64,000 nucleotides of DNA, from assembly GCA_944393685.1 (NCBI GenBank), contig CALYAW010000001.1, forward strand, positions 36,023 through 100,022, in the 5' to 3' direction. The notes under the pieces were generated by a model. That model saw nothing but the letters and a program-made list of their open reading frames with translations, searched no databases and was not told the origin of the DNA. Position 1 is the first letter of the stretch; each line of letters opens with the position of its first letter. This document shows, piece by piece, positions 1,505 through 56,230 of the stretch. The position numbers and the translations under genes were made by a program. The DNA comes from an uncultured Alphaproteobacteria bacterium (lineage in GTDB: Bacteria > Pseudomonadota > Alphaproteobacteria > RF32 > CAG-239).

Positions 1505-2868
1505 TGTTGTCTGCCTTCATCCCCATAGCACATATTCTTTCTTTTGCTTTTTTTATTTTGGCAATTCGCGGTTTGTCTTCTCCTCATACTGCGCAACACG
1601 GTAATTTTTTAGGCATCCTCGGTATGTTGCTAGCCGTTGTTTCCGTTTTGCTGTTATCCCCTATCACTGAATTAGGACAAGTCCTCATAAGTATCATTTT
1701 AGGTGCCGGAGTTGGAATTTATCCGGCGCTAAAAGTTAAAATGACATCGCTTCCGCAAATGATTGCCGCTTTCAACGGATTGGGGGGATTATCTGCCATG
1801 TTCATCGCTTTGGCAGAAATCTTTTCCGGATCTGCATCTCATTTTGATACGTCAATCGGATTAATTATAGGCGCCTTGGCATTTTCTGGTTCTATGATTG
1901 CTTTTGCCAAACTACAAGGTATAATAACATCAGCTGCAATAAATTTTTCATTTCAGCAGACAATCAATTTTTTGTTGGCATTAGCTATCATCATCCTTTG
2001 TGGCTTATTTGTCCTTATGCCAAATATAAATATTTTTATCTCTCTCGGTATTATATCTATCATATTAGGAACTTTGTTGGTACTGCCTATTGGAGGTGCC
2101 GATATGCCTATTGTTATATCGATTCTCAATGCATACTCTGGTCTGGCTGCGGCAGGAATTGGTTTTTCACTTGGCAACGTTTTGCTAATTATCACCGGAA
2201 CGATTGTAGGCGCAAGTGGCACGATTCTGTCTTATATTATGGTCAAAGCCATGAACAGGACGCTAAAAAATGTTTTATTTGGTGGATACAGCATTCAAAA
2301 ACACAATAGTTCATCTCTGCCCATAAACACACAATCTGCGCATGTCGGCTCACCTCAAGACGCCGCATATATCATGGAAAATGCCAATAAGGTAATCATA
2401 GTCCCTGGGTACGGTATGGCTGTTTCGCAAGCACAACACATTTTGCAAAAGATGGCTTATGATTTACACAGCAAATACGATGTTGAAGTAAAATTTGCAA
2501 TTCATCCCGTCGCCGGTCGCATGCCGGGACATATGAACGTACTATTAGCAGAAGCCAATGTTCCGTTTGAGGATATATATGCTCTTGAAGATATTAATCA
2601 CGAATTTTCATCTGCCGATGTCGCCTATGTTATAGGAGCCAATGACATTACCAATCCTTTGGCCAAAACGGATACGTCTTCGCCAATTTATGGAATGCCC
2701 ATTCTTGAAGTAGAAAAAGCTAAAACTGTTTTTTTTGTAAAACGCTCATTAAACAGTGGTTATTCAGGTGTCGAAAATCCTTTGTTTTTTGCAAATAATA
2801 CGATAATGCTATACGGAGACGCAAAAAAAATCACGGAAGAAATTGTCACCACTTTGGAAAATAAATAA
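1504..2868 (+). CDS. pntB: NAD(P) transhydrogenase subunit beta
   Basis: 454 aa. N-terminal multi-TM region and C-terminal NADP(H)-binding dIII domain (VIIVPGYGMAVSQAQH...HPVAGRMPGHMNVLLAEA). Confidence 0.9.
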   Translation: MLSAFIPIAHILSFAFFILAIRGLSSPHTAQHGNFLGILGMLLAVVSVLLLSPITELGQVLISIILGAGVGIYPALKVKMTSLPQMIAAFNGLGGLSAMFIALAEIFSGSASHFDTSIGLIIGALAFSGSMIAFAKLQGIITSAAINFSFQQTINFLLALAIIILCGLFVLMPNINIFISLGIISIILGTLLVLPIGGADMPIVISILNAYSGLAAAGIGFSLGNVLLIITGTIVGASGTILSYIMVKAMNRTLKNVLFGGYSIQKHNSSSLPINTQSAHVGSPQDAAYIMENANKVIIVPGYGMAVSQAQHILQKMAYDLHSKYDVEVKFAIHPVAGRMPGHMNVLLAEANVPFEDIYALEDINHEFSSADVAYVIGANDITNPLAKTDTSSPIYGMPILEVEKAKTVFFVKRSLNSGYSGVENPLFFANNTIMLYGDAKKITEEIVTTLENK

Positions 2869-2947
2869 CCGAATAATTTCATCAGATATTAATTTTTTTA
2901 TCTTAAACTTTTTGCGTTCAACCAAAATAACGAAGAGATAAAGTGTT

Positions 2948-4900
2948 ATGCACGCAATTCACGCCCTGATTATAGATTTAACATTAATAACCATTTATGC
3001 CGGTATCACGACACTTATTTTTAAAAAGCTAAAGCAACCTACTGTATTGGGTTATATTCTGGCAGGAATTTTTGCCGGTCCGTTTTTCAACTTTGTTCCA
3101 ACGGTATCCGACAAAGAAAATTTAACATTATGGGCAGATATAGGCGTCATTTTTTTGCTTTTTGGACTTGGACTCGAATTCAGTTTTAATAAAATGATAA
3201 ATGTTGGCAAATCAGCCATGATAACAGCCACCGCCAATATTTTCTTTATGCTTTTTCTAGGATATTATACAGGATTACTGCTTGGCTGGCCAGTAATTGA
3301 CAGCTTTTTCTTAGGCTCTATGATTTCAATGTCCTCAACCACCATTATTATCAAGGCATTTGACGATCTCAATGTAAAAAAACAACGTTTTACGGATCTT
3401 GTTTTCGGTGTTTTGATTGTTGAAGATATAGTGGGCATTTTACTTCTTGTTTTGCTCCCCACAATAGCTCTTGGCAGCACCATAAACAGTGAAGAACTTG
3501 CTTTCAGCACGGCCAAACTCATTTTTTTCTTAGTATTATGTTTTGTAATAGGGATATATCTTGTTCCGACATTTCTAAAAAAAATATCGGTTTTTCTGAA
3601 TGACGAAATGATTTTACTCATAACCATCAGCCTATGCTTTGGTATGGTATTATTGGCAACTTCCTCTGGTTTTTCATCAGCTCTAGGGGCTTTCATCATG
3701 GGCTCGATTCTGGCAGAAACCGAAATCATCGAAAAGATAGAAAAAACATTCAAACCGCTCAAAGACTTTTTTGGAGCAGTGTTTTTTGTTTCAGTCGGCA
3801 TGATGGTTGATCCGAGTATGTTTCTAAAATATGCCTGGCCGATTTTTGTTATCACCGGCATTGTCATAATCGGCAAAGTCTTATTTTCTTGTTTTGGTTT
3901 TTTACTCTCGGGACAAACTCTTAAAACCTCAATCCAAGGAGGCTTTTCTTTAGCCCAAGTCGGAGAATTTGCCTTTATTATTGCCAGTCTTGGCATGAGT
4001 ATTGGCGTCTTAAATCAACGTGTGTATCCAATAATTGTAGCTGTTTCGGTTATCACAACATTTTTAACACCTTTGATGATAAAAACCTCAGATCAGGCAT
4101 ACAAAAAGATTTCCAGACTTCTGCCTCAAAAATGGAATATGCTTATAGAGCGCAACACATCTCTTTCTAAAGAGACACAAATGGAAGAACGTCGTTGGAA
4201 ACTTTTATTTAAGAGTTATTTCTTACGTTTGGTTTTATTTAGTATGTTTCTATATACCATTATAGCGTTATCAACCTATTTTATCCGCCCGTTTGTTAAC
4301 GATTTGATACCCAACAATTGGGGAGCGCGACTTGTCGTAACCGCAATAACATTTATTCTAACCGCACCGTTTCTCAAAGCCCTCATCGGCTGGGAAACCA
4401 TTTTACCTCTTTATCTTAAAGAAAAAATAGCCCTACTCGCTTGCAAAATAAGTTCAGCATCCAGCGAAGAAGCTAAACAAACAATTCTCAAAAGACTGGA
4501 AACAAAACTTGATTTTTGCAACGTCAGCCACGAAACGGAAAACGCGCGCAACTTTTTTATTTCCAATAACAAAATCGCGGCTCTTTATTACAAACTCTGG
4601 ATGTCCAAAAAACTTAATCGATTACCGTTAATTCTGCTGACTAGTTTTAGACTTCTTTTAGTGCTGTTTTTTATTGGTATGATTATCCACCAATTTTTGA
4701 CGGAAAACCCTAGAATCACTTTAGCTCTGGCAATAATTTCCATTTTTATTATTTCTCAGTCCCGCTGGTTATTCAATCAATACATGAGTATTGAGACGCA
4801 ATTCTTAAAAAATCTCAACGGAAATCGCCAAAATGAAGAAAAAGAAGAAACACCACCTTCTCAATCTTCTTCATCTTCAAACATATCAAATAATAACTAG
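2948..4900 (+). CDS. Monovalent cation:proton antiporter (Na+/H+ exchanger family, Kef/CPA-type) with extended C-terminal membrane region
   Basis: 650 aa, more than 10 TM helices. N-terminus ILAGIFAGP and overall layout resemble Na_H_Exchanger domain proteins. The C-terminal about 250 aa carry extra TM segments and a Ser/Asn-rich tail. Confidence 0.7.
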   Translation: MHAIHALIIDLTLITIYAGITTLIFKKLKQPTVLGYILAGIFAGPFFNFVPTVSDKENLTLWADIGVIFLLFGLGLEFSFNKMINVGKSAMITATANIFFMLFLGYYTGLLLGWPVIDSFFLGSMISMSSTTIIIKAFDDLNVKKQRFTDLVFGVLIVEDIVGILLLVLLPTIALGSTINSEELAFSTAKLIFFLVLCFVIGIYLVPTFLKKISVFLNDEMILLITISLCFGMVLLATSSGFSSALGAFIMGSILAETEIIEKIEKTFKPLKDFFGAVFFVSVGMMVDPSMFLKYAWPIFVITGIVIIGKVLFSCFGFLLSGQTLKTSIQGGFSLAQVGEFAFIIASLGMSIGVLNQRVYPIIVAVSVITTFLTPLMIKTSDQAYKKISRLLPQKWNMLIERNTSLSKETQMEERRWKLLFKSYFLRLVLFSMFLYTIIALSTYFIRPFVNDLIPNNWGARLVVTAITFILTAPFLKALIGWETILPLYLKEKIALLACKISSASSEEAKQTILKRLETKLDFCNVSHETENARNFFISNNKIAALYYKLWMSKKLNRLPLILLTSFRLLLVLFFIGMIIHQFLTENPRITLALAIISIFIISQSRWLFNQYMSIETQFLKNLNGNRQNEEKEETPPSQSSSSSNISNNN

Positions 4901-6056: not shown

Positions 6057-6115
6057 CAAACATCTCCATTCATAACCGATTTTACAGCTTTGCAAGCGGA
6101 TTGGTTTTTATAAGA

Positions 6116-6150
6116 GAAAAGCTCTCTATTAAAGAGAGCTTTTCTATATT
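6116..6150 (+). terminator. Rho-independent terminator-like hairpin after the nitroreductase gene
   Basis: GAAAAGCTCTCT-ATTAA-AGAGAGCTTTTC perfect 12-bp stem followed by T-rich TATATT. Confidence 0.55.
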
Positions 6151-8210: not shown

Positions 8211-10004
8211 TCAGATTTCTTTATCTTCTTTTAAGTCAATACCAGGAAGAGATAATAAACAGCTAATTTTTGTTCTTGGATATTTTGGATTATTCAACGT
8301 TTGTAAACTAGCAGAAAAAAATACTTGTTTTCTAGCTCTTGTAACCGCCACATAAAAAAGGCTAAGAATATCAATGTAGCGACAATAAAACTTTTGATCC
8401 ATATTGCTACTTTTGTTTAAACATCTATTACAATCATCATGGTTTGCTATTTCCGGACATACACTACATAAAGATTGCCAATTAGGAAAACTATTTCGCT
8501 CCATATCAGGAAGTAAAATATAATCCCATTCCAATCCTTTTGCACCATGCACCGTTGTAACTACAATTTTTTCTTCCAATAGTTCCATAGATTGTTTTAA
8601 GGAATTATTTGATAATACATCAATTATTAGCTGATATTTTTCTTCATTATTAAGATAAATCTTATTTGTGATATCAGAAAAAAACACTTTTAACAATTTT
8701 ATTAAAGATGATATTTCATCTGTCATGTGAGCATCATAAAAAGCAGAAACTTTTTCGTAAATTTGAGATAAAAAAGATTTGCGAATAGTTTTTAATTTAC
8801 TTTTGTTATAACTATCTATAAATATTTCCAATACATCTTTATGAAATTTTTTATAAGAATAACTTTCTTCGTTGAATAATCCATTAAAATAATCAATTGA
8901 GTTACTAGCTAAATAATCCAAGATATAATTTAAATTTTTTGTTCGGGATTGAATTAAAATTGCTATTTTGCATCCTTGATAATGATTTAATAAATAAATT
9001 AATTTTGATTTTATATAGACTGCCTCATCGTGCTGTGTATAATACAAATTACAAGGAACAACCGCATTTTGAGTGATAATTATAGAATTGCCTTTACTAT
9101 TTTCTCTAATGTTTTTATCTAATTGCAGCATATTCGGATTATCTTTAAACCGATAATTTGTTGTTATTTTAAATATATTCATAGAATATTTTGCACATGC
9201 TTTTTCCATTAAACCTGGAACAGCACCTATAAAACCATAAATTCTTTGTAAAGGATCTCCCATAAACAGAAGAGAAGTTTTTTCTGTTATCAGTTGTCTA
9301 AGTATTGCCCAGCTAATACTACCAGTATCTTGAAATTCATCAATTATTATATAAGGAAATAGTTTTTGATAAAACTGTAATATTCCACTATATTGACTTA
9401 AAAGTTTCAATGTAAGTAATAATATGGCATTATATGTAATATGATTATTTGGCAGAAACTTATACTTTATTAAAGCAATATACTTCTCAAAATTTTCATT
9501 CAAGTAACCATAATTATTATCTTTGATACATTGAGAATAAGTACTTAAAAAATCAGCTTCTGACATAAGTAGCCCTATGTCTAACTGTGTTAATTCATCG
9601 GTTTCTGCATCATCATCTATAGAAAATTGGTTTAATTGCAAAAGATTATCATTTAATAAATACCCATATCGACTTAGAATTCTACGCGAAAAGCCATGAA
9701 AATTAGTAACTATGATTTTATCTTCTAAATCGTGAATATTTCTTATTAACTTAGGTACATTTTCAAAAACTTCTTTTTTTATTTTGTACGCAGCATTTAC
9801 ACCAAATGTTAATATCAAAATTTTTTTATTTACAGGAATCTTATTTGTACTAAGCAAATAAGCTATTTTACTAACTAATGTCTTTGTTTTACCGCACCCT
9901 GCTGATGCTTCAACAAGGATTCGTTTTTCTTGAGAAAATATGATATCAAGTTGCTCCCTATCATTTTGATGCATTTCTTTTAACTTATCTTCAATACAAG
10001 ACAT
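8211..10004 (-). CDS. gajB: Gabija GajB, UvrD/Rep-like superfamily-1 helicase with C-terminal Cys-rich extension
   Basis: 597 aa. Walker A ASAGCGKTKTL, motif II IIIDEFQDTG, motif V/VI VTTVHGAKGLEWDYILL. Start ATG overlaps gajA stop (TAATG) at 10004. Extra C-terminal CxxC...CxxC segment. Confidence 0.8.
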   Translation of the reverse strand: MSCIEDKLKEMHQNDREQLDIIFSQEKRILVEASAGCGKTKTLVSKIAYLLSTNKIPVNKKILILTFGVNAAYKIKKEVFENVPKLIRNIHDLEDKIIVTNFHGFSRRILSRYGYLLNDNLLQLNQFSIDDDAETDELTQLDIGLLMSEADFLSTYSQCIKDNNYGYLNENFEKYIALIKYKFLPNNHITYNAILLLTLKLLSQYSGILQFYQKLFPYIIIDEFQDTGSISWAILRQLITEKTSLLFMGDPLQRIYGFIGAVPGLMEKACAKYSMNIFKITTNYRFKDNPNMLQLDKNIRENSKGNSIIITQNAVVPCNLYYTQHDEAVYIKSKLIYLLNHYQGCKIAILIQSRTKNLNYILDYLASNSIDYFNGLFNEESYSYKKFHKDVLEIFIDSYNKSKLKTIRKSFLSQIYEKVSAFYDAHMTDEISSLIKLLKVFFSDITNKIYLNNEEKYQLIIDVLSNNSLKQSMELLEEKIVVTTVHGAKGLEWDYILLPDMERNSFPNWQSLCSVCPEIANHDDCNRCLNKSSNMDQKFYCRYIDILSLFYVAVTRARKQVFFSASLQTLNNPKYPRTKISCLLSLPGIDLKEDKEI

Positions 10005-11704
10005 TATTCGACTGCCTTAAGAATAGCGTTTTTGTAACATTCTGGAATACACACTTCGGGACAACGCTCGCCAATACACTCTCCAAATACAACAGTTTTA
10101 TTATTTTGAAAAAATGAAACATACATATATTTTAAAATTTCATCTGGATATTGGTATGAAGCGAATTGGTAATCTTGTTCTTCTAATGGAGGATTTAGTG
10201 CGTACTGCTTATTAAGTTTAGCAACAGAACTTCTTTGAATTATATTACACCTATAATCATTCTGAATAACCTTTAGAACTTCAATTCCGTCATCATTATA
10301 TAAATTAAAAACTATTTCACTATCAAAACATTTAGTTTGCGTAACAAACATATAATCTTTAAAATGTGTAATATCTTGATCTTTATTACCTCTTTGATAT
10401 TCATCATATTTATCTTTATCAAAAATAAGTATAGGTTGTATATTAAATTTCTCAAACAAATAAGCTAATGGAAAAATACTATTAGCGCCAGATGCCTTTA
10501 CGATAGCAACACCATAATCATCCAAATTGATTTTTAATGTTTTTGCAAAGCTATACAAGGCGCCCTGTTCACTATCACCTTCCACTAATATAACTTTTTT
10601 TGCAAACAAAGCCTCTTTAACGTAGGTTAGTGCTTTATACCAATGTTTTTCTTCCGATGTTATTGAAATATCGGCACCACATACAGCTTTTACTTTGGAT
10701 TCGTCTTTATATAAACGAATGATTTGTTTATAGTTATTTTCGACAATTTCTCTGGAATGGGTTGTCAGCAATATTTGAGCAGAAAAATGATCAATATCAA
10801 ATAGTTCTTTTATAATTGCATTAAAATCATCATCTTCTCCTTTTGCAATCTTTTTGATATTGTACAATATGCTTCTTTGTAAAAAAGGACTTAGATGTAT
10901 CTCAGGTTCATCAAAAGTAATAATACAGGAAAATGTTTTATTATCAGGCAATCCTTTTTTTTCAGAATATCTTAAAATTTTTTCTAAAATAGATAATAAA
11001 ATAAGTATATTAAACTGTACTCCATATCCTGAGCACTCTAAAGGAATGTTCCCTGCTTCGTATAGATCAAAAATTTTGGGTAATAATTCATCTGCATTAT
11101 TAGATACATCTGATTTTATATTAAACTTATTAAAACACGTAAGTTTTTCAAGAATCCCTATAATATAATCATTTAATGAGTTTATATTTTCTTCTACAAG
11201 ATATAATTTAGAAGCATTTTGAGATAAATACCTTCTTATAATATAATTTAAAAATGCTCCTACACCTTTACTCTTTTCAAAAGTTATTTCTGTTTTAGGA
11301 TTTCTTAAAGAATCATATACAATCACATTTAAATTATTAATTATATCTGCTCGTGAAATAGAGTTTCCACTTTCTTTGTGTCTATAGTTAATATAATCAT
11401 CAGGAGTTGCTTGCTCTGCGATAATATTAACTAAATGATGGTCGTCTGGATCAAAATAATCATCAAAAGCACCTAATTCTTCATCCGAGAGTTTTAATGT
11501 AAAAGAAATAACCAGTGGCTTACTTTTATCATAAAAATCTATTTCATCAAATTTCTTACCCGTTAATACAGATGTAATAGCATATAATAAATTTGATTTT
11601 CCAATATTGTTTTCACCAACAATTGAACAAATTTCATCAGAGAAAATCGTTGATATTCCTGACAAATTTCTAAAATTTTCAATAGTCAATTTTGATATTT
11701 TCAT
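10004..11704 (-). CDS. gajA: Gabija GajA, OLD-family ABC ATPase fused to Toprim nuclease
   Basis: 566 aa. Walker A GENNIGKSNLL, Walker B TFDEPEIHLSP, H-loop LLTTHS, Toprim VILVEGDSEQ plus DxD (FDKDKYD). Directly upstream of and coupled to the UvrD-like gene, which is the diagnostic Gabija architecture. Confidence 0.8.
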   Translation of the reverse strand: MKISKLTIENFRNLSGISTIFSDEICSIVGENNIGKSNLLYAITSVLTGKKFDEIDFYDKSKPLVISFTLKLSDEELGAFDDYFDPDDHHLVNIIAEQATPDDYINYRHKESGNSISRADIINNLNVIVYDSLRNPKTEITFEKSKGVGAFLNYIIRRYLSQNASKLYLVEENINSLNDYIIGILEKLTCFNKFNIKSDVSNNADELLPKIFDLYEAGNIPLECSGYGVQFNILILLSILEKILRYSEKKGLPDNKTFSCIITFDEPEIHLSPFLQRSILYNIKKIAKGEDDDFNAIIKELFDIDHFSAQILLTTHSREIVENNYKQIIRLYKDESKVKAVCGADISITSEEKHWYKALTYVKEALFAKKVILVEGDSEQGALYSFAKTLKINLDDYGVAIVKASGANSIFPLAYLFEKFNIQPILIFDKDKYDEYQRGNKDQDITHFKDYMFVTQTKCFDSEIVFNLYNDDGIEVLKVIQNDYRCNIIQRSSVAKLNKQYALNPPLEEQDYQFASYQYPDEILKYMYVSFFQNNKTVVFGECIGERCPEVCIPECYKNAILKAVE

Positions 11705-11734: not shown

Positions 11735-12739
11735 TTATTCAATTTCATTCATCTCTTCAAATAGATACGGAGCTACAGAGATTTCCTTTTGTTTTTCAAC
11801 TTTTCTTTTAAATGCCTCTATATTTTTACTAATCTCCATAAGAGCTGAAACCCTACCAATCTGTAAAATAAGGATATTTCTTCCCTCTTCAGTTAACCAC
11901 CTATGAAACTGAGCAATTCTTTTTCCATCTTTTTTTATATTCTTCTTATTAAGTTCTTCTTTTATATATCCGTGCTCTATTGGCTCATACACATATTTAT
12001 TTATAAAGTTTCCATAATACATCGGCCTTTTACGAGAAATAGTGATTCCGTTATTATAAAGACGATCTAGTTCAGCAAAAAAAGCATCCGGAAATGTTTT
12101 AATCCATTTTTGTAAACCTTCTTCAATATATTTTGCTAACAATATCCTTAATGCATCGTGTTTTCTGTCATATTGATAACCCGTTGCTTCATCAATTAAT
12201 GCATCTATACCAACTTGAGCAAAAGCCATTAATAGAATTTCAGATTTCTCTGCAAGTTTCTTTTGTGAAGCTGTTAATTGGTTGTCTCTACGTGCATTGA
12301 GATAAACTTCACACATTTTAGGTAATATACTGGCCAAATAACCTGTTTTTTCTATAGACCCATCAATATATGTGATTGGGGTGGCCTTCTCAATAACTTC
12401 TGAAGTTATATATTTTTCTAAGTTTTTTGCGGCCAAAAATGGAGGTATTTTTGTTCCTTCAATTTCGAGCCTTGAATTCATACCTTTTCTAGTTCGATCA
12501 AAAGCATTAAATATAGATGTTGCGGTTAAAACTCTCCGACCATCATCTAATACAGCACAATCTATTTCCACATCGCCAATAGGAAGCACTCCAGTATATA
12601 GAGCCTTAGGAAAATTGCTTTCATTAGTAGCACTTTTTTGCCATCTTGATTGCGCCGCTTTTATTGCTATCTCTCTACGTTGTTCTGATGATAATTTTTT
12701 TGCTCTAACCTTACCACCTTTAATTTGATTTACATTCAT
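11735..12739 (-). CDS. Hypothetical protein, phage P63C-domain-like, with basic N-terminal DNA-binding-like helix
   Basis: 334 aa. N-terminus MNVNQIKGGKVRAKKLSSEQRREIAIKAAQSRW is a motif I recall from phage P63C-domain and related proteins. 31 bp downstream of gajA on the same strand. Confidence 0.4.
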   Translation of the reverse strand: MNVNQIKGGKVRAKKLSSEQRREIAIKAAQSRWQKSATNESNFPKALYTGVLPIGDVEIDCAVLDDGRRVLTATSIFNAFDRTRKGMNSRLEIEGTKIPPFLAAKNLEKYITSEVIEKATPITYIDGSIEKTGYLASILPKMCEVYLNARRDNQLTASQKKLAEKSEILLMAFAQVGIDALIDEATGYQYDRKHDALRILLAKYIEEGLQKWIKTFPDAFFAELDRLYNNGITISRKRPMYYGNFINKYVYEPIEHGYIKEELNKKNIKKDGKRIAQFHRWLTEEGRNILILQIGRVSALMEISKNIEAFKRKVEKQKEISVAPYLFEEMNEIE

Positions 12740-12892: not shown

Positions 12893-13606
12893 ATGACTGA
12901 GGCAGAAAAAAGAGAAATACTAGCAAAAGCAAAGGATTTTTTTAGAGAGAAAATTGTTGATAATCATAAAAGGAATACAGAAAGATTAGGTAAATTATCG
13001 GCTTTTCAACCGAATCCTTTTTTAGAAAAATATCTAGCAAACTTTGCTTTTGGTAATTGTAACGCTTCTAGCATAGCAAAGGCTTTAATATATCCTAGGG
13101 TTTTAGGAACATCAATAAATACTACATTCGGTACACAAATGCAGGCTTTTTGCAAAGATGTGCTTAGTGGTTTTGCATCCACTACTCCTGGTATAGATAT
13201 TGAATTTATTGACCAAATAGATAATCGCCGCAAATATTGCCAAATAAAAGCTGGGCCTAACACCATTAATAATGATGATATTACAACTATTAAAAATCAT
13301 TTTGAATCTATTCGTCGTATAGCCCGCACCAATGGTTTACGAGAATTTAATGCTGATATTGATTGTATTGTTGGTGTTTTTTATGGAAAAAGTGATGATT
13401 TATCACAAATGTATCGGACAATTGATCGTTCGCATCCAGTATATGTCGGCAAAGATTTTTGGCACCATTTAACCGGGGATCCCAGCTTTTATGATGAATT
13501 AATAAATGAAATTGCGTCTATTGCAACAGAGGTTGATGGAACCGAATTATTAAATAATGTAATTAGGCAGCTATCTACAGAAATAGAAGAAAAATATAAT
13601 CAATAA
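12893..13606 (+). CDS. Putative type II restriction endonuclease (candidate partner of the downstream C5-methyltransferase)
   Basis: 237 aa, no recognisable housekeeping identity. Sits immediately upstream of an HTH-fused m5C methyltransferase with the regulatory palindrome in between. Possible PD-(D/E)xK-like FID...CQIK segment. Assignment is mainly by context. Confidence 0.4.
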   Translation: MTEAEKREILAKAKDFFREKIVDNHKRNTERLGKLSAFQPNPFLEKYLANFAFGNCNASSIAKALIYPRVLGTSINTTFGTQMQAFCKDVLSGFASTTPGIDIEFIDQIDNRRKYCQIKAGPNTINNDDITTIKNHFESIRRIARTNGLREFNADIDCIVGVFYGKSDDLSQMYRTIDRSHPVYVGKDFWHHLTGDPSFYDELINEIASIATEVDGTELLNNVIRQLSTEIEEKYNQ

Positions 13607-13635
13607 CGATATTTTAACTTATCTACAGCTATCTT

Positions 13636-13665
13636 AATAACCCTTGCATATATGCAAGGGTTATT
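13636..13665. promoter_or_regulatory. Perfect 30-bp palindrome between the R candidate and the M gene (candidate operator for the MTase HTH and/or terminator)
   Basis: AATAACCCTTGCATA|TATGCAAGGGTTATT, 15-bp perfect arms, followed by TTTTATTGTT, 33 bp before the MTase ATG. Confidence 0.6.
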
Positions 13666-13698
13666 TTATTGTTCCTTTATTGAATCAAGGAGTGTCTT

Positions 13699-14943
13699 AT
13701 GCAGTTATCTATTCATGAAGTTAGCCAAAAACTTAATCTTTCAATTGATACAATCAGACGATGGGAAAAAAAAGGTCTTATAAAAGCAGAAAGATCGGAT
13801 AAAAACCATAGAATTTTTGATGAAGATGAAGTAAAAGCACTTCTAAAAAAATTAAACGACAAATCTGAAGCAGAATTTAAAGTATTAAAAAACAAAACAC
13901 CATCCCCTTATACTGCAATAGAATTATTTGCTGGAGCCGGAGGAACAGCTTTAGGCTTTGAAAATGCTGGAATACACCATGTACTTCTAAATGAATTTGA
14001 TAAAAACTGCGTAGAAACCTTAAGAAATAACTTCCCTAAAGGCACAAATATTGTTCATGCTGATATACATAATGTCGATTTTTCATCATGGAAAGGTAAA
14101 GTTGATATCGTGCAAGCTGGTTTCCCTTGCCAAGCCTTTAGTTATGCGGGAAAAAGCATGGGTTTTGAAGACACACGAGGAACCTTATTTTTTGAATTTG
14201 CTCGTTGTGTTAAAGAAACCATGCCCAAAATTGCTGTTGGTGAGAACGTCAAAGGATTATTAAAACACGATAACGGCAGAACGCTTCAAACTATGGTAAA
14301 TACTTTAACGGAACTTGGTTATAATGTAAGATATAAAGTACTTAGAGCACAATATTTGGATGTCCCTCAAAAAAGAGAGCGATTAATTATAATTGGAATT
14401 AGAAAAGACTTAGATATACCTTTCATTTTTCCCAAAGAAAAAAATTATACCGTTTCTTTAAGATCAGCATTAAAAAATTGCCCAAAATCTGAAGGACAAA
14501 GCTACCCTAAAAGAAAAGCTGAGATTCTCTCACAGGTTCCAGAGGGAGGATACTGGCGAGATCTTCCGATAGGGTTACAAAAAGAATATATGAAAGGAAG
14601 TTTTTACCTTTCTGGAGGAAAAACAGGTATGGCAAGACGTCTTTCCTGGGATGAACCCAGCCTAACTCTAACCTGTGCACCGGCACAAAAACAAACAGAA
14701 CGATGTCACCCAGAAGAAACTCGGCCATTGACTATTAGAGAATATGCAAGGATTCAATCTTTTCCAGATACTTGGGAATTTAAGGGATCTATGGGAGCTC
14801 AATACAAACAAATAGGGAATGCTGTACCAGTAAATTTAAGTTATCACATTGGCCGCTGTTTGATTGCTATGCTTGATAAAAACTATGATATTGAAGATGC
14901 TGTTATTGAAGATAATACAAGCCATTTATCTAAAGCTGCATAA
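13699..14943 (+). CDS. DNA (cytosine-5)-methyltransferase with N-terminal HTH domain
   Basis: 414 aa. N-terminal MerR/excisionase-like HTH (LSIDTIRRWEKKGLIKAER). m5C MTase motif I IELFAGAGGTALGF, motif IV GFPCQAFSYAGK, motif VI ENVKGL, motif X QIGNAVPV. Confidence 0.9.
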   Translation: MQLSIHEVSQKLNLSIDTIRRWEKKGLIKAERSDKNHRIFDEDEVKALLKKLNDKSEAEFKVLKNKTPSPYTAIELFAGAGGTALGFENAGIHHVLLNEFDKNCVETLRNNFPKGTNIVHADIHNVDFSSWKGKVDIVQAGFPCQAFSYAGKSMGFEDTRGTLFFEFARCVKETMPKIAVGENVKGLLKHDNGRTLQTMVNTLTELGYNVRYKVLRAQYLDVPQKRERLIIIGIRKDLDIPFIFPKEKNYTVSLRSALKNCPKSEGQSYPKRKAEILSQVPEGGYWRDLPIGLQKEYMKGSFYLSGGKTGMARRLSWDEPSLTLTCAPAQKQTERCHPEETRPLTIREYARIQSFPDTWEFKGSMGAQYKQIGNAVPVNLSYHIGRCLIAMLDKNYDIEDAVIEDNTSHLSKAA

Positions 14944-15068: not shown

Positions 15069-15389
15069 TTATTTCAAAACTTCAACAAATTTGGATAAGG
15101 TATGAATTTGTTCATCCGAAAGGTGCCTAATATTTGCAATCAACAAGGACTCTTCAGCTGCACGTTTGGGACTAATGTTGTCATCAACATTATCATCTAA
15201 AATCATGCTTAATCGGCAATTAAGAGCTTTTGCAATATCGACCAAGGTCTCAAAATGTGGATAATTGACACCTCTTTCTATGTTTGATATAGCCTCAACA
15301 GAAACATCGCAACGCTCAGCTAAAACTTCTTGTGTCATTTTAGCCGCTTGTCTAATAGCCTTAATTCTCAACCCGATCTTTTTCTTCAT
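15069..15389 (-). CDS. XRE (Cro/C1)-family HTH transcriptional regulator
   Basis: 106 aa. LRIKAIRQAAKMTQEVLAERCDVSVEAISNIERGVNYPHFETLVDIAKAL is a canonical XRE HTH. Divergent from the 4-gene operon. Confidence 0.85.
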   Translation of the reverse strand: MKKKIGLRIKAIRQAAKMTQEVLAERCDVSVEAISNIERGVNYPHFETLVDIAKALNCRLSMILDDNVDDNISPKRAAEESLLIANIRHLSDEQIHTLSKFVEVLK

Positions 15390-15509: not shown

Positions 15510-16406
15510 ATGAAAAATCGAGCAATGTCTGAAAAATTTTTTTATGAGTTTAAAAGCGGAAAGTATCAAAACATCCTACAAACTGTAAAGCAAGACGATG
15601 ATTTAATTATGTGCCTGCGAGGTGATTATATTACCATATATTATAAGAGTATGCGTATATTGGAAATATCCGAAAATGGCGAATATGATGTTGATAAAAA
15701 CTACGGCATTATTCCTCCAAACGATGATACAAATTGGATAGAATATTTCAAAAATGCAAAATTTGCCTTGAGTTCCTACAATAAAACTAAACAAATTAAT
15801 AAACTTGAAAAGGAAGTTCAACAAGCGATTGTTAAAGAAAACAACACAAGCTCTATCTGCAATGAAACCGATTACTTTATTATTGATATAGAATATACTC
15901 AGCCGGAATTTGATGGTAGATTTGATGCATTAGCTGTCTATTGGCCTAAAAACAAACGCAAAAACGGCCATGACCTACAACTAGCGTTTATTGAAGTTAA
16001 AGCCGGCAATAATGCTATTGGAGGGACTTCCGGTATTGTAAAGCATTATGAATCGGTTATTGAATTTTTGAATAATCTTACCAAGAATAATGAAAAAGAA
16101 CAATTTATCCAAGATATTGAAAAAGTGATAGCTCAACAGCGAGACTTGGGATTATGGAATATTCCTCATAATAAACACGAAATAACTTTGTCTCGCTCAA
16201 CCAAGCCTCAATTAATTTTTATTCTTGCCAACTATAATCAAAACTCAACAGTATTACGCAATGAATTAAATCTTTTTCCCAGTATTAACAAGAAATATAG
16301 TAATGAGCTTCCTTTTGAATTGAAATTTGCTACGTCATCTTTTGTCGGATATGGCTTATATAGTAACGGAATGATTAATATAGATAATATATTAGATAAA
16401 AAATAA
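15510..16406 (+). CDS. PD-(D/E)xK nuclease-like protein (first gene of novel 4-gene operon)
   Basis: 298 aa. Core strands FDGRFDALAVYW ... LAFIEVKAG give D...ExK spacing typical of the restriction-endonuclease-like fold. No housekeeping match recognised. Confidence 0.5.
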   Translation: MKNRAMSEKFFYEFKSGKYQNILQTVKQDDDLIMCLRGDYITIYYKSMRILEISENGEYDVDKNYGIIPPNDDTNWIEYFKNAKFALSSYNKTKQINKLEKEVQQAIVKENNTSSICNETDYFIIDIEYTQPEFDGRFDALAVYWPKNKRKNGHDLQLAFIEVKAGNNAIGGTSGIVKHYESVIEFLNNLTKNNEKEQFIQDIEKVIAQQRDLGLWNIPHNKHEITLSRSTKPQLIFILANYNQNSTVLRNELNLFPSINKKYSNELPFELKFATSSFVGYGLYSNGMINIDNILDKK

Positions 16407-16415
16407 GGGGCTAAA

Positions 16416-17612
16416 ATGAAGGCATGCATTAGAAGAGGAGCAAACCAAATCGGAGGATCTGCTGTTGAAATTATAGCAGATAATCAACAAAGGTTGATTA
16501 TAGATATTGGGTTACCTCTTGATGCAGAGGAAAATACTCAAGACCTTCTTCCTCAAATTGACGGTCTTAAACATAGGACACCTGATTTGCTAGGTATCTT
16601 AATATCTCATCCCCATCAAGATCATTATGCCTTAGGATTACATATTGATAAAGACATCCCTATTTTTATGAGCCATGCGACATCAAAAATAATGGAAGTT
16701 ACCACACAACATAACATTCCTGACGCATTTGTCTTCAACAATATCAATATCTTTGAAAATCAAAAAAGTTTTAAAATCGGGAACTTCAACATTACACCCT
16801 ATTTGGTTGATCATTCGGCCTATGATGCTTATGCTTTTTTAATTGAAGCTGACGGCAAACGTTTGTTTTACAGCGGAGATTTTCGTGCACATGGTCGAAA
16901 ATCCAAATTATTTGAATCATTCATCCAAAATCCTCCGCAACATATAGATACATTATTAATGGAAGGCTCTTGTTTAGGACGAGATAAATCCGAGCAATAC
17001 GAAAGTGAAACCGAGTTGGAAGAAAAGTTTTTTGATATATTTAAGCAAACAAGGGGTATAAGCCTTATTCAAACATCTTCGCAAAACATTGATAGAATTG
17101 TTACCATCTACCGAGCATGCAAAGAAAGTAACCGCACATTGGTAATGTCTGGGTATACAGGACATATTCTGCAATGTTTAGAAAATTCACATTTACCAAA
17201 TTTTACATGGCCAAATGTTAAAAAAATGAGCCAATCAGTTACAAGAAAACATGAAATATCTGTTGAAATGATAGAAAAGTCTCCCGATAAATACACAATC
17301 CTTTTGGGCGGCCAGATATTTAATATGCTAAAAAACAGTTTCCTTTTAAATAATGAAGCTTCATTTATTTATTCCATGTGGGATGGTTATAAAGAACTAT
17401 ATAAAGAGCGACTGGAACTAATTCAAAATAAAGGGGTTAATATGTTTGATATTCACACCTCAGGACATGCAGATATTCCAAGTCTTCAAAAATTTGCATC
17501 AGCTCTTAATCCTCATCAATTGGTTCCGATTCATACTTTTCTCCCACAAGAGTTCAAAAAGCTATTCAATAATGTAGTTATTTATGAAGATAATCAAATA
17601 TTTACAATATAA
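16416..17612 (+). CDS. Metallo-beta-lactamase-fold nuclease of beta-CASP type (RNase J/CPSF73/SNM1-like)
   Basis: 398 aa. HxHxDH motif ISHPHQDHYALG. Downstream DHSAYDAYAF and IDTLLMEGSCLG resemble the DxLIxESTY region. Long C-terminal domain after the MBL core consistent with a beta-CASP insertion. 10 bp after the previous gene. Confidence 0.6.
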   Translation: MKACIRRGANQIGGSAVEIIADNQQRLIIDIGLPLDAEENTQDLLPQIDGLKHRTPDLLGILISHPHQDHYALGLHIDKDIPIFMSHATSKIMEVTTQHNIPDAFVFNNINIFENQKSFKIGNFNITPYLVDHSAYDAYAFLIEADGKRLFYSGDFRAHGRKSKLFESFIQNPPQHIDTLLMEGSCLGRDKSEQYESETELEEKFFDIFKQTRGISLIQTSSQNIDRIVTIYRACKESNRTLVMSGYTGHILQCLENSHLPNFTWPNVKKMSQSVTRKHEISVEMIEKSPDKYTILLGGQIFNMLKNSFLLNNEASFIYSMWDGYKELYKERLELIQNKGVNMFDIHTSGHADIPSLQKFASALNPHQLVPIHTFLPQEFKKLFNNVVIYEDNQIFTI

Positions 17613-18654: not shown

Positions 18655-18677
18655 AATTTCAGCTTAGTTATAATTGA

Positions 18678-18708
18678 AAATGCCGAGTACTTACTCGGCA
18701 TTTTTTGT
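18678..18708 (+). terminator. Strong rho-independent terminator closing the 4-gene operon
   Basis: AATGCCGAGTA-CT-TACTCGGCATT followed by TTTTTGTT, immediately after the 18654 stop. Confidence 0.75.
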
Positions 18709-32840: not shown

Positions 32841-32873
32841 AAAGAGCCCTTTGTTATAAAGGGCTCTTTTTAA
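32841..32873. terminator. Bidirectional terminator between ASCH gene and htpG
   Basis: AAAGAGCCCTTT-GTTAT-AAAGGGCTCTTT, A-run and T-run on either side. Confidence 0.75.
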
Positions 32874-36246: not shown

Positions 36247-36282
36247 AAAAAGGAGTTCTTTTAAAAAGAACTCCTTTTCTTT
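36247..36282. terminator. Bidirectional terminator hairpin
   Basis: AAAAGGAGTTCTTTTTAAAAAGAACTCCTTTT palindrome between convergent genes. Confidence 0.7.
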
Positions 36283-38717: not shown

Positions 38718-38762
38718 AAATGCAAAAATCCCGTGTTTACCAAACGAGATTTTTCATACATA

Positions 38763-38792
38763 AAAACTCCGGAAAAATTCCGGAGTTTTTAT
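38763..38792. terminator. Bidirectional terminator between typA and the convergent small gene
   Basis: AAAACTCCGG-AAAAATT-CCGGAGTTTT with flanking A/T runs. Confidence 0.75.
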
Positions 38793-39258: not shown

Positions 39259-40842
39259 ATGAATTTATTCAAATCAATCGCCACCTTCGGCGGTTTTACC
39301 TTATTGTCACGCTTTACCGGATTCTTCCGAGATATGGTTCTTGCCAACTACCTCGGCGCCGGCTTAATATCAGACGCATTTTTTGTTGCCTTTAAGCTGC
39401 CAAACCTGTTTCGTAGCCTGTTTGCCGAAGGCGCTTTTACCTCTGCGTTTGTTCCAATGCTGTCGCAAAAACTTGTTGCAGAGAACCGTCAAGATGCAAT
39501 AGATTTTGCAGCCAAAGCGATTTCTGTACTGGCATTTTTTCTCGGTATTTTTGTTATTTTGATGGAATTTCTAATGCCTTTGGTAGTCCAAATTTTAGCT
39601 CCCGGCTTTATAAATGACGGAGGAAAAATAGAATTAGCCACAACCTTATCTCGAATTACTTTTCCCTTTTTATTATTCATATCCATAGTTTCTTTCCAAT
39701 CCGGCATACTAAACTCTCTAGGCAAATTTGCAGCTCCGGCAGCAGCTCCCGTAATTCTAAACCTAATGATGATAGCCTCTGTTTTCGTATTTGTTCCTTT
39801 TAGCCCGACAGCAGCACACGGCATTGCGATTGGAGTAACCTTTGCTGGTTTTATGGAAATTTTATGGCTAATGTTTTTCTTACATCGTCAACAAGTGTGG
39901 CTAAAACCCAATTTCCACATACTCACACTAATCAAAGACCAAACCATCAAAACATTATTCAAACGCATAGCTCCGGGGGTTTTAGGAGCTGGTGTATATC
40001 AAATTAATATGGTTGTAGACACAATTCTCGTGTCTCTTGTCGGTACGGGCGCCATTTCGTGGTTATATTATGCCAACCGCTTACAACAACTTCCTCTTGG
40101 TGTTGTCGGAGCGGCTATCGGCGTAGCTGTTTTGCCGATTCTTTCAAGACACCTAAAATCAGGAGAAGCCGACGAAGCAAAGCACGTACAAGACAAGGCT
40201 ATTGAATATGGAGCACTTTTGTCAATCCCTGCAGCTGTTGCCTTGATTATCTTAGCCGAACCGATTATCAATATTTTATTTCAACACGGCAAGTTTGGAG
40301 CATTTGAAACAGACATGACATCCAAAGCCGTAATCGCCTATGCAATAGGGTTGCCGGCATATGTCATGGTCAAAGCTCTGGCACCAAACTTTTTCGCCCG
40401 CGGGGATACCAAAACCCCCGTAAAATACAGCATAATTGTCTTCATAACAAATTTATTATTTTCAATACTTTTGATGAGACCGTTCGGCCACGTCGGTATT
40501 GCCGCCGCAACCACCATTGCAGCTTTTGTTTCCCTGTATCAGTATTTGCATGGCCTAAAAAAACGTTCCTTTTGGCATATTAGCTCTGCCTTGGTTGTAA
40601 AATGCCTTAAAATTACAACCGCAGCCTTAATTATGGGAGCAATGCTTGAATTGACACAAATCATGCTTAACAATATATACCTTAACTGGCTCAATTTGTC
40701 ATTAATGCCTAAACTTGGCATATTCACGTTTTTATGCATTTTGGGTGTTGCAACTTTTGTATTTGCCGCTAAAATATTAGGCATTCTGGACTTGCGCGAA
40801 ATACTGCACAATTTGCTAAAAAAAGGGAAACCCGCATGCTAA
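39259..40842 (+). CDS. murJ: Lipid II flippase MurJ (MviN)
   Basis: 527 aa. N-terminus FGGFTLLSRFTGFFRDMVLANYLGAGLISDAFFVAFKLPNLFR is canonical MurJ. Confidence 0.9.
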   Translation: MNLFKSIATFGGFTLLSRFTGFFRDMVLANYLGAGLISDAFFVAFKLPNLFRSLFAEGAFTSAFVPMLSQKLVAENRQDAIDFAAKAISVLAFFLGIFVILMEFLMPLVVQILAPGFINDGGKIELATTLSRITFPFLLFISIVSFQSGILNSLGKFAAPAAAPVILNLMMIASVFVFVPFSPTAAHGIAIGVTFAGFMEILWLMFFLHRQQVWLKPNFHILTLIKDQTIKTLFKRIAPGVLGAGVYQINMVVDTILVSLVGTGAISWLYYANRLQQLPLGVVGAAIGVAVLPILSRHLKSGEADEAKHVQDKAIEYGALLSIPAAVALIILAEPIINILFQHGKFGAFETDMTSKAVIAYAIGLPAYVMVKALAPNFFARGDTKTPVKYSIIVFITNLLFSILLMRPFGHVGIAAATTIAAFVSLYQYLHGLKKRSFWHISSALVVKCLKITTAALIMGAMLELTQIMLNNIYLNWLNLSLMPKLGIFTFLCILGVATFVFAAKILGILDLREILHNLLKKGKPAC

Positions 40843-41840
40843 AATTTTATCTGGAAAAACTTCTTGGCCTATCAATATCGTTATTGTCTTTTTTACGTTC
40901 CAACATTATGACGCTATATGCCTTTTTAAAAAGGCATATAACTTCTTGGTCCAAGCTCGGGATTTTAGTCTTTGTGCTTCTTTTTGTTTTATACTATCCG
41001 CTCGGAGCCTTTATGACAAACAGTATTGACACAGATACTTCTTATGAAGCACCTCTAACCCAGAACCGCTCGGCAACTGTTTCCTCTGCAGCCTATCTTA
41101 TCAAGCGCGAAATTAATGATAAAATCTGGACACCCAACCTACCTTTTTTCTTTCCGGCATCTATTTTAGACAATATGCCTTCTTTCCAAACAGGGCTAAT
41201 CTCTGGTATAAACACAGTCATCACCGCCATGTCACAACGCGTTCCTGTTGAAGATAATAGTCAGCTGACACATGCCGCCGAATTACTCAACTATCCTCCC
41301 ACAATCTGGATGTTTTCACCGCAAAACAAATTAATACCGGCTCCCTCATCCAACAGTCAATATCGCAGAGGGCGCAAACGTTTGCTTAAATATAACGATT
41401 CTCTTTCCCGCGGAGAAACAATCTTTATGAAAAGGCCGGAAGATTTAAAATATATCTTAACCAAAATACAACAGAATTTGTTAAAAAGTATGAACATTCT
41501 TGAAAGTCAAATTCGTGAAAATTCAGACAACATATTTGACACTAGGGCCGACGATATATTTTATTACCAACAAGGCAAACTCTATAGTTATTACATGATG
41601 CTCAAAGCTCTTGGTTCAGACTACAAAGATATTATTGTAGCTCATGATACATACCAACCATGGACCAAACTTCTTAAAACACTTGAAGACGCATCACACT
41701 TATCCCCCCTGATTATTCGTAATGGTAGTTTAGACAGTTCTTTTGCCCCCAATCATTTGGCAGTAATTGGTTTATACACCGACCGAGCTGTGTTAAGTTT
41801 GTTACAATTGACACAAAATCTTTCTAAGCTACCGCAATAA
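40836..41840 (+). CDS. Hypothetical membrane-anchored protein
   Basis: 334 aa, N-terminal TM helix then soluble domain. Start overlaps murJ stop. Confidence 0.4.
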   Translation: MLKFYLEKLLGLSISLLSFLRSNIMTLYAFLKRHITSWSKLGILVFVLLFVLYYPLGAFMTNSIDTDTSYEAPLTQNRSATVSSAAYLIKREINDKIWTPNLPFFFPASILDNMPSFQTGLISGINTVITAMSQRVPVEDNSQLTHAAELLNYPPTIWMFSPQNKLIPAPSSNSQYRRGRKRLLKYNDSLSRGETIFMKRPEDLKYILTKIQQNLLKSMNILESQIRENSDNIFDTRADDIFYYQQGKLYSYYMMLKALGSDYKDIIVAHDTYQPWTKLLKTLEDASHLSPLIIRNGSLDSSFAPNHLAVIGLYTDRAVLSLLQLTQNLSKLPQ

Positions 41841-52098: not shown

Positions 52099-52135
52099 TC
52101 CACAAAAAGACAGGTCGATAATATCGACCTGTCTT
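52099..52135 (-). terminator. Rho-independent terminator of pnp
   Basis: AGACAGGTCGAT-AAT-ATCGACCTGTCT followed by a T-run on the minus strand. Confidence 0.75.
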
Positions 52136-56099: not shown

Positions 56100-56230
56100 A
56101 AAATTTCTCCTTAAAAACCTTTTATACTTTTATATAGGCACTTTATGATTTTATCAATAAAAAAACAGGCAAAATAAATTTTGCCTGTTTTAATAAAAAG
56201 TGACACAAAGCTCCAAAACGAGTTTTCTGC

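Follow-up and report, generated by a model that had tools for sequence, protein, structure and literature searches.

A type II restriction-modification pair with a cross-phylum dyad in the promoter of a putatively self-repressing MerR-type HTH-methyltransferase

The 64,000-nt stretch of DNA analysed here (the window), part of contig CALYAW010000001.1 of an uncultured alphaproteobacterium, carries on its plus strand two adjacent genes that are assigned as a complete type II restriction-modification (R-M) pair, with separate genes for an endonuclease (R; 12893–13606, 237 aa) and a C5-cytosine methyltransferase (M; 13699–14943, 414 aa), the latter with an N-terminal helix-turn-helix (HTH) domain. 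The intergenic region contains a perfect 30-bp dyad (AATAACCCTTGCATA/TATGCAAGGGTTATT; 13636–13665), its 15-nt arms 100% complementary and without a spacer, 33 nt before the M start codon (ATG, 13699), exactly as the original prediction had placed it.

R matches the Pfam family RE_EcoO109I (PF14511) over residues 13–213 (profile positions 3–196 of 198; E 5e-35; 121.5 bits against a cut-off of 22.5), is weakly similar in a phmmer search to the sequence of the EcoO109I crystal structure (PDB 1wtd; E 0.0014) and is assigned to REase_II by PADLOC. D102, E104, D107, D110, K114, Q117 and K119 are at least 95% conserved in 28 unique R homologues (38–100% identity), and the pattern D102/E104...Q117-x-K119 agrees with a PD-(D/E)XK-type site that is kept by selection; the conserved residues are presumably the counterparts of the EcoO109I active site. 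The original prediction had proposed this gene as an endonuclease candidate from its position only, and had named a match to a non-nuclease family as what would count against it. The searches returned an endonuclease family, RE_EcoO109I, instead, and the 237-aa product is a true type II enzyme. As R is now placed by family and not by position alone, M is not an orphan, and the proposed type II pair holds, with a recognised endonuclease family beside a motif-complete 5-methylcytosine (m5C) methyltransferase.

The catalytic and target-recognition domains of M (residues 72–387; 13912–14859) match DNA_methylase (PF00145; E 3.5e-86; profile positions 2–321 of 324), and M also matches TIGR00675 (E 2.4e-85; 287 bits against a cut-off of 100.65). 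The translation shows FAGAGG, FPCQAFS, GENVKG, QKRERL and QIGNAVP, and catalytic motifs I, IV, VI, VIII and X are invariant in an alignment of M relatives (A2). The PADLOC MTase_II model PDLC03272 spans residues 3–400, N-terminal domain included. Over 8000 database proteins match M at E ≤1e-20, and the best 120 all share the MerR plus methyltransferase architecture.

The MerR/excisionase-like HTH that had been read at the M N-terminus was recovered by profile searches: residues 3–51 (13705–13851) match the Pfam families MerR (E 1.5e-11), MerR_1 and HTH_17, with scores of 44.3 bits for PF00376 (cut-off 28.2) and 42.1 bits for PF13411 (cut-off 21.6), and TIGR01764 (‘excise’). An AlphaFold2 (AF2) model of the N-terminal 75 residues, built on a shallow 9-row alignment, has a beta-alpha-alpha-beta-beta-alpha domain at residues 2–53, with block-mean predicted local distance difference test (pLDDT) values of 75–87 over residues 1–50. 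Secondary structure ends at residue 53, and the linker of ~20 aa (residues 52–71; 13852–13911) is mostly disordered by prediction (block-mean pLDDT 55–64) and of low conservation in an alignment of the HTH subfamily (A1), across which the recognition-helix region (SIDTIRRWEKKGLIK) is nearly invariant. The top Foldseek matches of the domain are RacA (5i44) and BldC (6ama, 6amk), with a root-mean-square deviation of 0.9–1.0 Å over 49 aa and 33–35% identity, followed by the N-terminal domains of MerR-family proteins (MtaN, CadR, BmrR, SoxR). Profile searches of M found neither the MerR coiled-coil dimerisation helix nor an effector domain: the PF13411 match stops at position 46 of 69, and the CueR, ZntR, CadR and NmlR models stop at about position 47 of 117–141, all far under their cut-offs. 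The NCBIfam BldC model scores 20.8, far under its cut-off of 77, and the Pfam search gave no HTH_3/XRE match to the N-terminal domain. A phmmer search with the 58-aa domain against 1.84 billion representatives returned 919 matches, the ranking dominated by proteins with tandem HTH repeats, and a word-indexed protein search with 70 aa returned only nine short fragments.

Of the perfect inverted repeats in the window, the dyad is the longest; sequences simulated 60 times with a first-order Markov model mostly had a longest arm of 9–11 nt, and one had an arm of 14 nt. In a half-site scan of the 64 kb it alone scores 20/20, and no second operator was found in the window, the next best match (16/20 at 39836) being a chance match. 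At the RNA level a terminator scan calls a hairpin of 13 pairs (5 G-C) with a 4-nt loop and a U-rich tail (TTATTGTTCC), lying 30 nt past the R stop codon and co-directional with R, and the predicted fold has −23.1 kcal/mol (z −4.2). Long perfect hairpins with arms of 12–15 nt and A- and T-runs on their flanks also occur at 6115–6145, 18677–18704, 32841–32869, 36248–36278, 38760–38792, 40915–40940, 52107–52135 and 56162–56191; these look like bidirectional intrinsic terminators, typical of this genome.

Conservation of the dyad was followed through 95 related loci from Alpha-, Gamma- and Betaproteobacteria, Candidate Phyla Radiation (CPR)/Patescibacteria and metagenomes. A scan of one genome per species gave 14 loci with M relatives at 61–98% identity, from gut Alphaproteobacteria, a Gammaproteobacterium, a Burkholderiaceae metagenome-assembled genome and several CPR/Patescibacteria; 80 further loci, with N-domain identities of 40–100%, came from metagenomes scanned with the N-domain alignment as seed. 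The consensus dyad TAACCnTTGCAT-n(0-2)-ATGCAAnGGTTA, represented in the window by the core TAACCCTTGCAT-AT-ATGCAAGGGTTA (13638–13663; predicted operator of the M N-terminal HTH), lies directly 5′ of the HTH-methyltransferase gene in ~95/95 loci. In all 14 genome loci TAACC[A/C]TTGCAT...ATGCAA[N]GGTTA stands immediately 5′ of the M start within otherwise unrelated intergenic surroundings, and the dyad is found in 80/80 metagenome loci if close variants and two sites cut by contig ends are counted. The strict pattern TAACC-N12-18-GGTTA is met in 73/95 loci, the others having variants (GAACCCTTGC..GCAAGGGTTC, TACCC..GGGTA), contig-end cuts or, in L135, an offset site: here an extension of ~63 aa precedes the HTH (489-aa open reading frame (ORF), locus positions 1871–3381) and the dyad is 16 nt upstream of the longer ORF. 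On a simple half-site score with a maximum of 20, 86 of the 95 loci reach at least 17, and the other nine comprise seven variant dyads scoring 14–16, five of which start with GAACC or GAGCC, and the two contig-end cuts. None of 1862 random 230-nt segments from related loci reaches 16, and no other site scoring at least 17 was found in 455 kb of related loci, sequences upstream of R genes included.

Across 80 unique sequences the dyad arms carry 1.5 bits per position, compared with 0.23–0.25 in the 35-nt flanks. CC, TTGC, GCAA and GG are essentially invariant, yet perfect dyads number only 8 among the 77 unique ones; at the sixth pair, which varies, 38/77 have Watson-Crick pairing, and the variable positions do not co-vary. 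The lack of co-variation implies that the hairpin itself is not the conserved object; base identity, not pairing, is what is kept, which is the signature of a protein-recognised site.

The dyad stays directly before M whatever the family or orientation of R. The R partner is upstream and co-directional in 30 loci with the EcoO109I family and 28 with the Eco47II family, belongs to the TdeIII family in several loci, and is downstream and convergent in at least 15 loci and divergent in two. M relatives paired with Eco47II- or TdeIII-family enzymes are 60–75% identical to M and have the same HTH and the same dyad, and loci without a co-directional upstream gene (L013, L016 and the at least 15 with convergent R) keep it. 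In an independent control set of viral contigs fetched with the catalytic domain alone, dyad presence tracks the HTH subfamily exactly: 4/4 methyltransferases with a DTIRRW(E/D)KKGLI-type N-domain have it (scores 17–20), while ~17 relatives without an N-terminal extension score 11–14, which is background. A pattern scan of viral contigs with TAACCMTTGCAYN{7,9}GGTTA was set aside, as nearly all of its 42 matches were chance matches with non-palindromic interiors; the sole real one was L016, with a divergent arrangement.

Relatives with other MerR-like N-domains have other boxes. Four viral contigs with an ETLRRWD N-domain (L141, L142, L144 and L145) carry TAACCATGATCAA twice in direct orientation, ~130 nt before the methyltransferase start, one copy abutting a TTGACA −35 box and the other following the −10, and L146 and L157 have TAACCAtTGTaTAAGGTTa; the TAACC half-site thus seems common to several HTH-methyltransferase subfamilies, in differing arrangements. 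The dyad is absent from plasmid-borne relatives of Bacteroides thetaiotaomicron, Psychrobacter and Aerococcus, whose N-domains differ, and no cultured host of the exact HTH subfamily was found among plasmid homologues from cultured bacteria. On the B. thetaiotaomicron plasmid (L217; NZ_CP103376.1, 743–2724) the gap between an R gene of the Eco47II family and the HTH-methyltransferase gene is only 2 nt, leaving no space for an intergenic operator, and the N-domain is of another subfamily (SKRTLLLWEQNGKF). On the Aerococcus urinaeequi plasmid (L219; NZ_CP114064.1, 1369–3473) a C5-methyltransferase with an XRE-type (SsoII-like) HTH is convergent with a PmeII-family endonuclease, and an AT-rich palindrome (TTATTAATAATAATATTAATAA) lies just upstream of the methyltransferase start. 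This XRE-type HTH on a related methyltransferase indicates that the same catalytic clade has acquired different HTH folds.

The dyad overlaps what is predicted to be the M promoter. The inner half of its left arm supplies a putative −35 hexamer (TTGCAT; 13644–13649, plus strand), called from its family-wide form and spacing, and a putative −10 hexamer (TATTGT; 13667–13672, plus strand) follows at 17 nt, called from sequence and the family spacing peak; a Shine-Dalgarno sequence (AAGGAG; 13687–13692, plus strand) ends 6 nt before the ATG. The −35 hexamer is exactly TTGCAT in 49/77 unique loci and a close variant (CTGCAT, TTGCAC, TTACAT) in the other 28. Of the loci in which dyad and start are 10 nt or more apart (60 unique), a −10-like hexamer (at least 4/6 matches, including A2 and T6) lies 16–18 nt past TTGCAT in 55, compared with five at control spacings of 24–26 nt, with a sharp peak at 17 nt (67–70% of loci). 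MerR activators untwist spacers of 19–20 bp, and the optimal 17-bp spacer argues against activation of that kind here. Other geometries exist. A group of 17 unique loci has the dyad directly against the start codon, with AAGG in the right arm of the dyad as ribosome-binding site, and in loci with 15–18 nt from dyad to ATG, many of them CPR, the ATG stands 6–7 nt after the predicted −10. This last arrangement, without a Shine-Dalgarno sequence, is seen in L009, L011, L012, L014 and ~26 metagenome loci, where the methyltransferase mRNA would consequently be leaderless. In every one of these subclasses a protein on the dyad would block initiation.

Some dyads also have the look of a terminator. 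Past a co-directional R gene, the dyad of the window provides a G+C-containing stem-loop and a U-tract, whereas the compensatory upkeep of a stem amid free sequence drift is not seen in the family, as the figures on information content, pairing and perfection given above indicate. Where R is upstream and co-directional, RNA-level mismatches average 1.04, as against 2.29 otherwise (Mann-Whitney p 1.7e-5, kinship ignored), 33% of dyads are terminator-like, as against 6% (kinship again ignored), and T-runs after the dyad are commoner. A probable further role of the dyad where R and M are in tandem is to end R transcripts, and the suggestion that the palindrome doubles as terminator of the 237-aa gene is, from the scan, the fold and this trend, plausible for the present lineage.

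What the analysis shows is the identity of both genes, the fold of the N-terminal domain, how conserved and how specific the dyad is, that it is linked to this HTH subfamily, and the geometry of the promoter. The reading that we prefer, with a probability of about 0.72, is that of a GGNCC-group R-M pair whose M is autorepressed through binding of its HTH to the dyad in its own promoter. The dyad would be M's own regulatory site, with the −35 box in the left arm and the remainder filling the 17-bp spacer to the −10. On entry of the system into a cell that has as yet no methyltransferase, the M promoter would be open and M would be produced; as M accumulates, two molecules would settle on the two half-sites (TAACCnTTGCA) through their N-terminal HTH, occlude the −35 box and the spacer and repress M transcription, giving a low, steady level of methyltransferase. 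In tandem R→M loci, RNA of the dyad transcribed from the R promoter would form the 13-bp hairpin with its U-rich tail, so that R transcripts would be terminated or attenuated; if they end at the hairpin, as is probable, M has to rely on the regulated promoter of its own. The variation in dyad length (24–26 bp) suggests independently tethered monomers and not a rigid dimer, as for M.SsoII (PMC6100179).

The suggestion that the palindrome is an operator for the M HTH is strongly supported by the comparison, as the dyad accompanies the subfamily in ~95/95 loci and overlaps the −35/−10 region, binding itself being predicted. On the whole the original reading is thereby supported, but not its further suggestion that the HTH-methyltransferase controls the endonuclease gene: no second operator was found at the R promoter, and with the genes in tandem promoter competition of the SsoII kind is excluded.

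Several points weigh against autorepression through the dyad. The whole case is computational, and physical binding, repression as the sign of regulation, stoichiometry, termination and the recognition sequence are predictions. The promoter is weak by Escherichia coli standards: TTGCAT agrees with TTGACA at 3/6 positions, TTGCAT/TATTGT agree with the sigma-70 consensus at 7/12, and a generic sigma-70 scan makes no call. Part of what is conserved in the left arm might be owed to the −35 box and nothing else, and in the 17 loci with the dyad directly at the start codon the promoter has to be further upstream. Dyad geometry is not uniform (24–26 bp in total), the loci are phylogenetically related, so that their counts are non-independent events, and the metagenome loci were picked by the peptide DTIRRWEK, which fixes the recognition helix across the sample and puts co-variation of HTH and operator within the subfamily beyond reach. 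The model also leaves the delay of endonuclease expression in a new cell unexplained. A caveat on the palindrome itself is that about nine other perfect hairpins in the window (arms 12–15 nt) look like ordinary terminators, so the length and perfection of the dyad alone are not unusual for this genome; its distinguishing mark is the conservation of its sequence in other organisms.

These hairpins, together with the terminator call on the dyad (z −4.2) and the more perfect dyads and more frequent T-runs downstream of co-directional R genes, are what would be expected if the dyad were merely a rho-independent terminator of R to which the HTH does not bind. That explanation is quite improbable, given that bases are conserved across phyla without co-variation and with few perfect dyads, that the dyad persists where no co-directional gene lies upstream, and that it is fused to the −35/−10 geometry and absent before homologous M genes without this HTH. 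Regulation through the HTH other than by simple autorepression is unlikely: the dyad might serve MerR-type activation, act as a sink that inhibits methylation or form a roadblock to read-through from R, and the MerR-type domain, the placement of the operator between −35 and −10 as with MerR operators, the inhibition of methyltransferase activity by the SsoII regulatory site (PMC6100179) and the position of the dyad between R and M can be cited for it. However, the spacer of 17 bp is already optimal and not of the 19–20 bp that MerR activators correct, M has no coiled-coil dimerisation helix or effector domain, and where the dyad overlaps the start codon or ribosome-binding site only repression is plausible. 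The joining of M plus dyad to three endonuclease families in several orientations shows that cassettes are shuffled at or near the dyad, and an XRE-type regulator is encoded nearby (15069–15389), as would suit a dyad that is bound by another factor or marks a junction at which the M cassette recombines or moves, the HTH then serving DNA tethering or target search. We consider this very improbable, as the XRE gene is present in L001 only, other neighbours are likewise not conserved among loci, no recombinase is consistently adjacent, presence of the dyad in the control set coincides exactly with that of the HTH subfamily, and the promoter geometry is conserved. The neighbouring XRE protein was rejected as controller since it is not conserved with the R-M system.

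The recognition sequence of the pair is probably GGNCC or RGGNCCY. This prediction rests on the three partner R families, EcoO109I, Eco47II and TdeIII, all named after enzymes of GGNCC/RGGNCCY specificity, and on depletion of GGNCC, which occurs 31 times in the window against 89 ± 10 expected and only twice in its first 27 kb (3077 and 13253). GATC (112 observed, 205 expected), CCNGG (53 and 90) and GGWCC (19 and 42) are also depleted in the window, and CCGG (187 and 90) and GCNGC (206 and 146) are enriched.

A complete Gabija system (8211–11704) lies immediately upstream of the R-M region, with GajB (UvrD-like helicase; 8211–10004, minus strand; PADLOC E 5e-194) and GajA (OLD-type ATPase plus TOPRIM; 10004–11704, minus strand; E 3e-158), placing the R-M pair in a defence island. 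Between Gabija and R, and divergent from the latter, is a gene for a 334-aa protein with a C-terminal P63C domain (11735–12739, minus strand; E 5.5e-18) and no PADLOC family match, which accompanies the R-M pair in L001 and L002 at 99–100% identity; the P63C gene and R-M core are common to these two loci and the flanking gene content differs. Downstream of M, the XRE-type HTH gene (15069–15389, minus strand) faces a gene for a 298-aa protein without family match (15510–16406), followed by one for a metallo-beta-lactamase/beta-CASP-like, RNase J-like protein (16416–17612; E 1.5e-17). These genes have no PADLOC match, are present in L001 and not in L002, and may be another uncharacterised defence or mobile-element module.

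A broader reading, which we put forward tentatively and hold to be rather doubtful, is that the HTH together with the TAACCnTTGCAT dyad makes up an autoregulatory cassette, portable and self-contained, of GGNCC methyltransferases. By recombination it would have joined at least three endonuclease families, unrelated or only distantly related, in every orientation, from Proteobacteria to CPR, where its transcripts would be leaderless. In tandem loci the same element would act as DNA, as operator and −35 box, and as RNA, as R terminator, and occupancy by M would couple autorepression to insulation from the R promoter. That the M-plus-operator module moves between endonuclease partners is shown by the loci themselves. 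If autorepression is correct, the locus suggests that self-regulating methyltransferases include a second class, large and cross-phylum, with an independently acquired HTH fold, which as far as found is undescribed and differs in fold and operator from the SsoII class. The extra domain of M, ignored by annotation pipelines, gains an explanation, and the operator consensus and promoter geometry are now precise enough to be testable with a DNA-binding domain of ~55 aa and a site of 24–26 bp. This would be a variation on a known theme, with no new principle and without overturning current understanding.

Known means of controlling type II R-M systems are C proteins, promoter methylation, antisense RNA and a few XRE-type HTH-methyltransferases (SsoII, Ecl18kI, EcoRII). 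A 2025 review of R-M biology lists only XRE-type examples of the last kind. In the open-access full-text literature no description was found of MerR-type N-domains in methyltransferases, of their regulation or of the dyad operator, and open-access work on the GGNCC systems Eco47II, TdeIII and Sau96I gave no description of an N-terminal regulatory domain or operator. The present pair differs from those three systems in its endonuclease, which is of the EcoO109I family. It shares with the EcoO109I system a PF14511 endonuclease and an m5C modification enzyme, but in that system a separate XRE-type protein, C.EcoO109I, binds a C-box, ACTAAGGA-T-TnCTTAGT (PMC4824078), whereas here the DNA-binding module is fused to M, the site is unrelated and the similarity between the endonucleases is low (the phmmer match to 1wtd). 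Neither a C gene beside R nor a C-box was found at this locus: no ORF lies between the end of the P63C gene (12739) and R (12893), and the only small HTH gene is that downstream of M on the minus strand (15069–15389), absent from most related loci.

By fold and sequence family the N-terminal domain belongs with the winged-HTH domains of MerR, CueR, BmrR and SoxR, whose dyad operators likewise lie between −35 and −10. It departs from the canonical MerR family in having no dimerisation helix or effector domain, in the 17-bp spacer in place of 19–20 bp and in the predicted mode of action, repression by occlusion and not activation by untwisting. In its beta-alpha-alpha-beta-beta-alpha core without a MerR coiled coil it resembles BldC of Streptomyces and the DNA-binding domain of RacA of Bacillus, although both occur as separate proteins, with functions in development or in anchoring the chromosome. 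The sites of BldC are direct repeats, bound head-to-tail, whereas that predicted for M is an inverted repeat.

The original prediction had likened the locus to the SsoII/Ecl18kI/MspI class, in which the regulatory C5-methyltransferases M.SsoII and M.Ecl18kI, and also M.EcoRII, M.MspI and M.ScrFIA, are known (PMC6100179, PMC3978073, PMC3874152, PMC12707154). The likeness stands for the layout and the promoter palindrome and fails for XRE-type HTH homology and for divergent genes. M.SsoII consists of an N-terminal domain (residues 1–55), a linker (56–71) and the methyltransferase (72–379) (PMC6100179), and M has the same order of a DNA-binding domain of ~55 aa, a flexible linker of ~15–20 aa and a C5-methyltransferase. 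Also as in the SsoII class, a palindromic site with A/T-rich flanking tracts lies in the gene's own promoter region, two monomers per dyad are expected, and the predicted outcome is autorepression of M. The SsoII N-domain, however, is of XRE type, homologous to the 434 repressor and C proteins and modelled on the former (PMC3978073), and that of M is MerR/BldC/RacA-like; the site of SsoII is a 15-bp sequence (AGGACAAATTGTCCT) unrelated to the 24–26-bp dyad TAACCnTTGCAT..ATGCAAnGGTTA; and the specificity group is CCNGG for SsoII and, by prediction, GGNCC here. The genes of SsoII are divergent with competing promoters, whereas they are tandem R→M in the window and convergent in some relatives, so that indirect activation of R by promoter competition as in SsoII cannot operate likewise. 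The likeness to SsoII, Ecl18kI and EcoRII (PMC3874152, PMC12707154, PMC2760811) is one of function and not of descent, similar ends presumably being served by an HTH of a different fold on a different operator.

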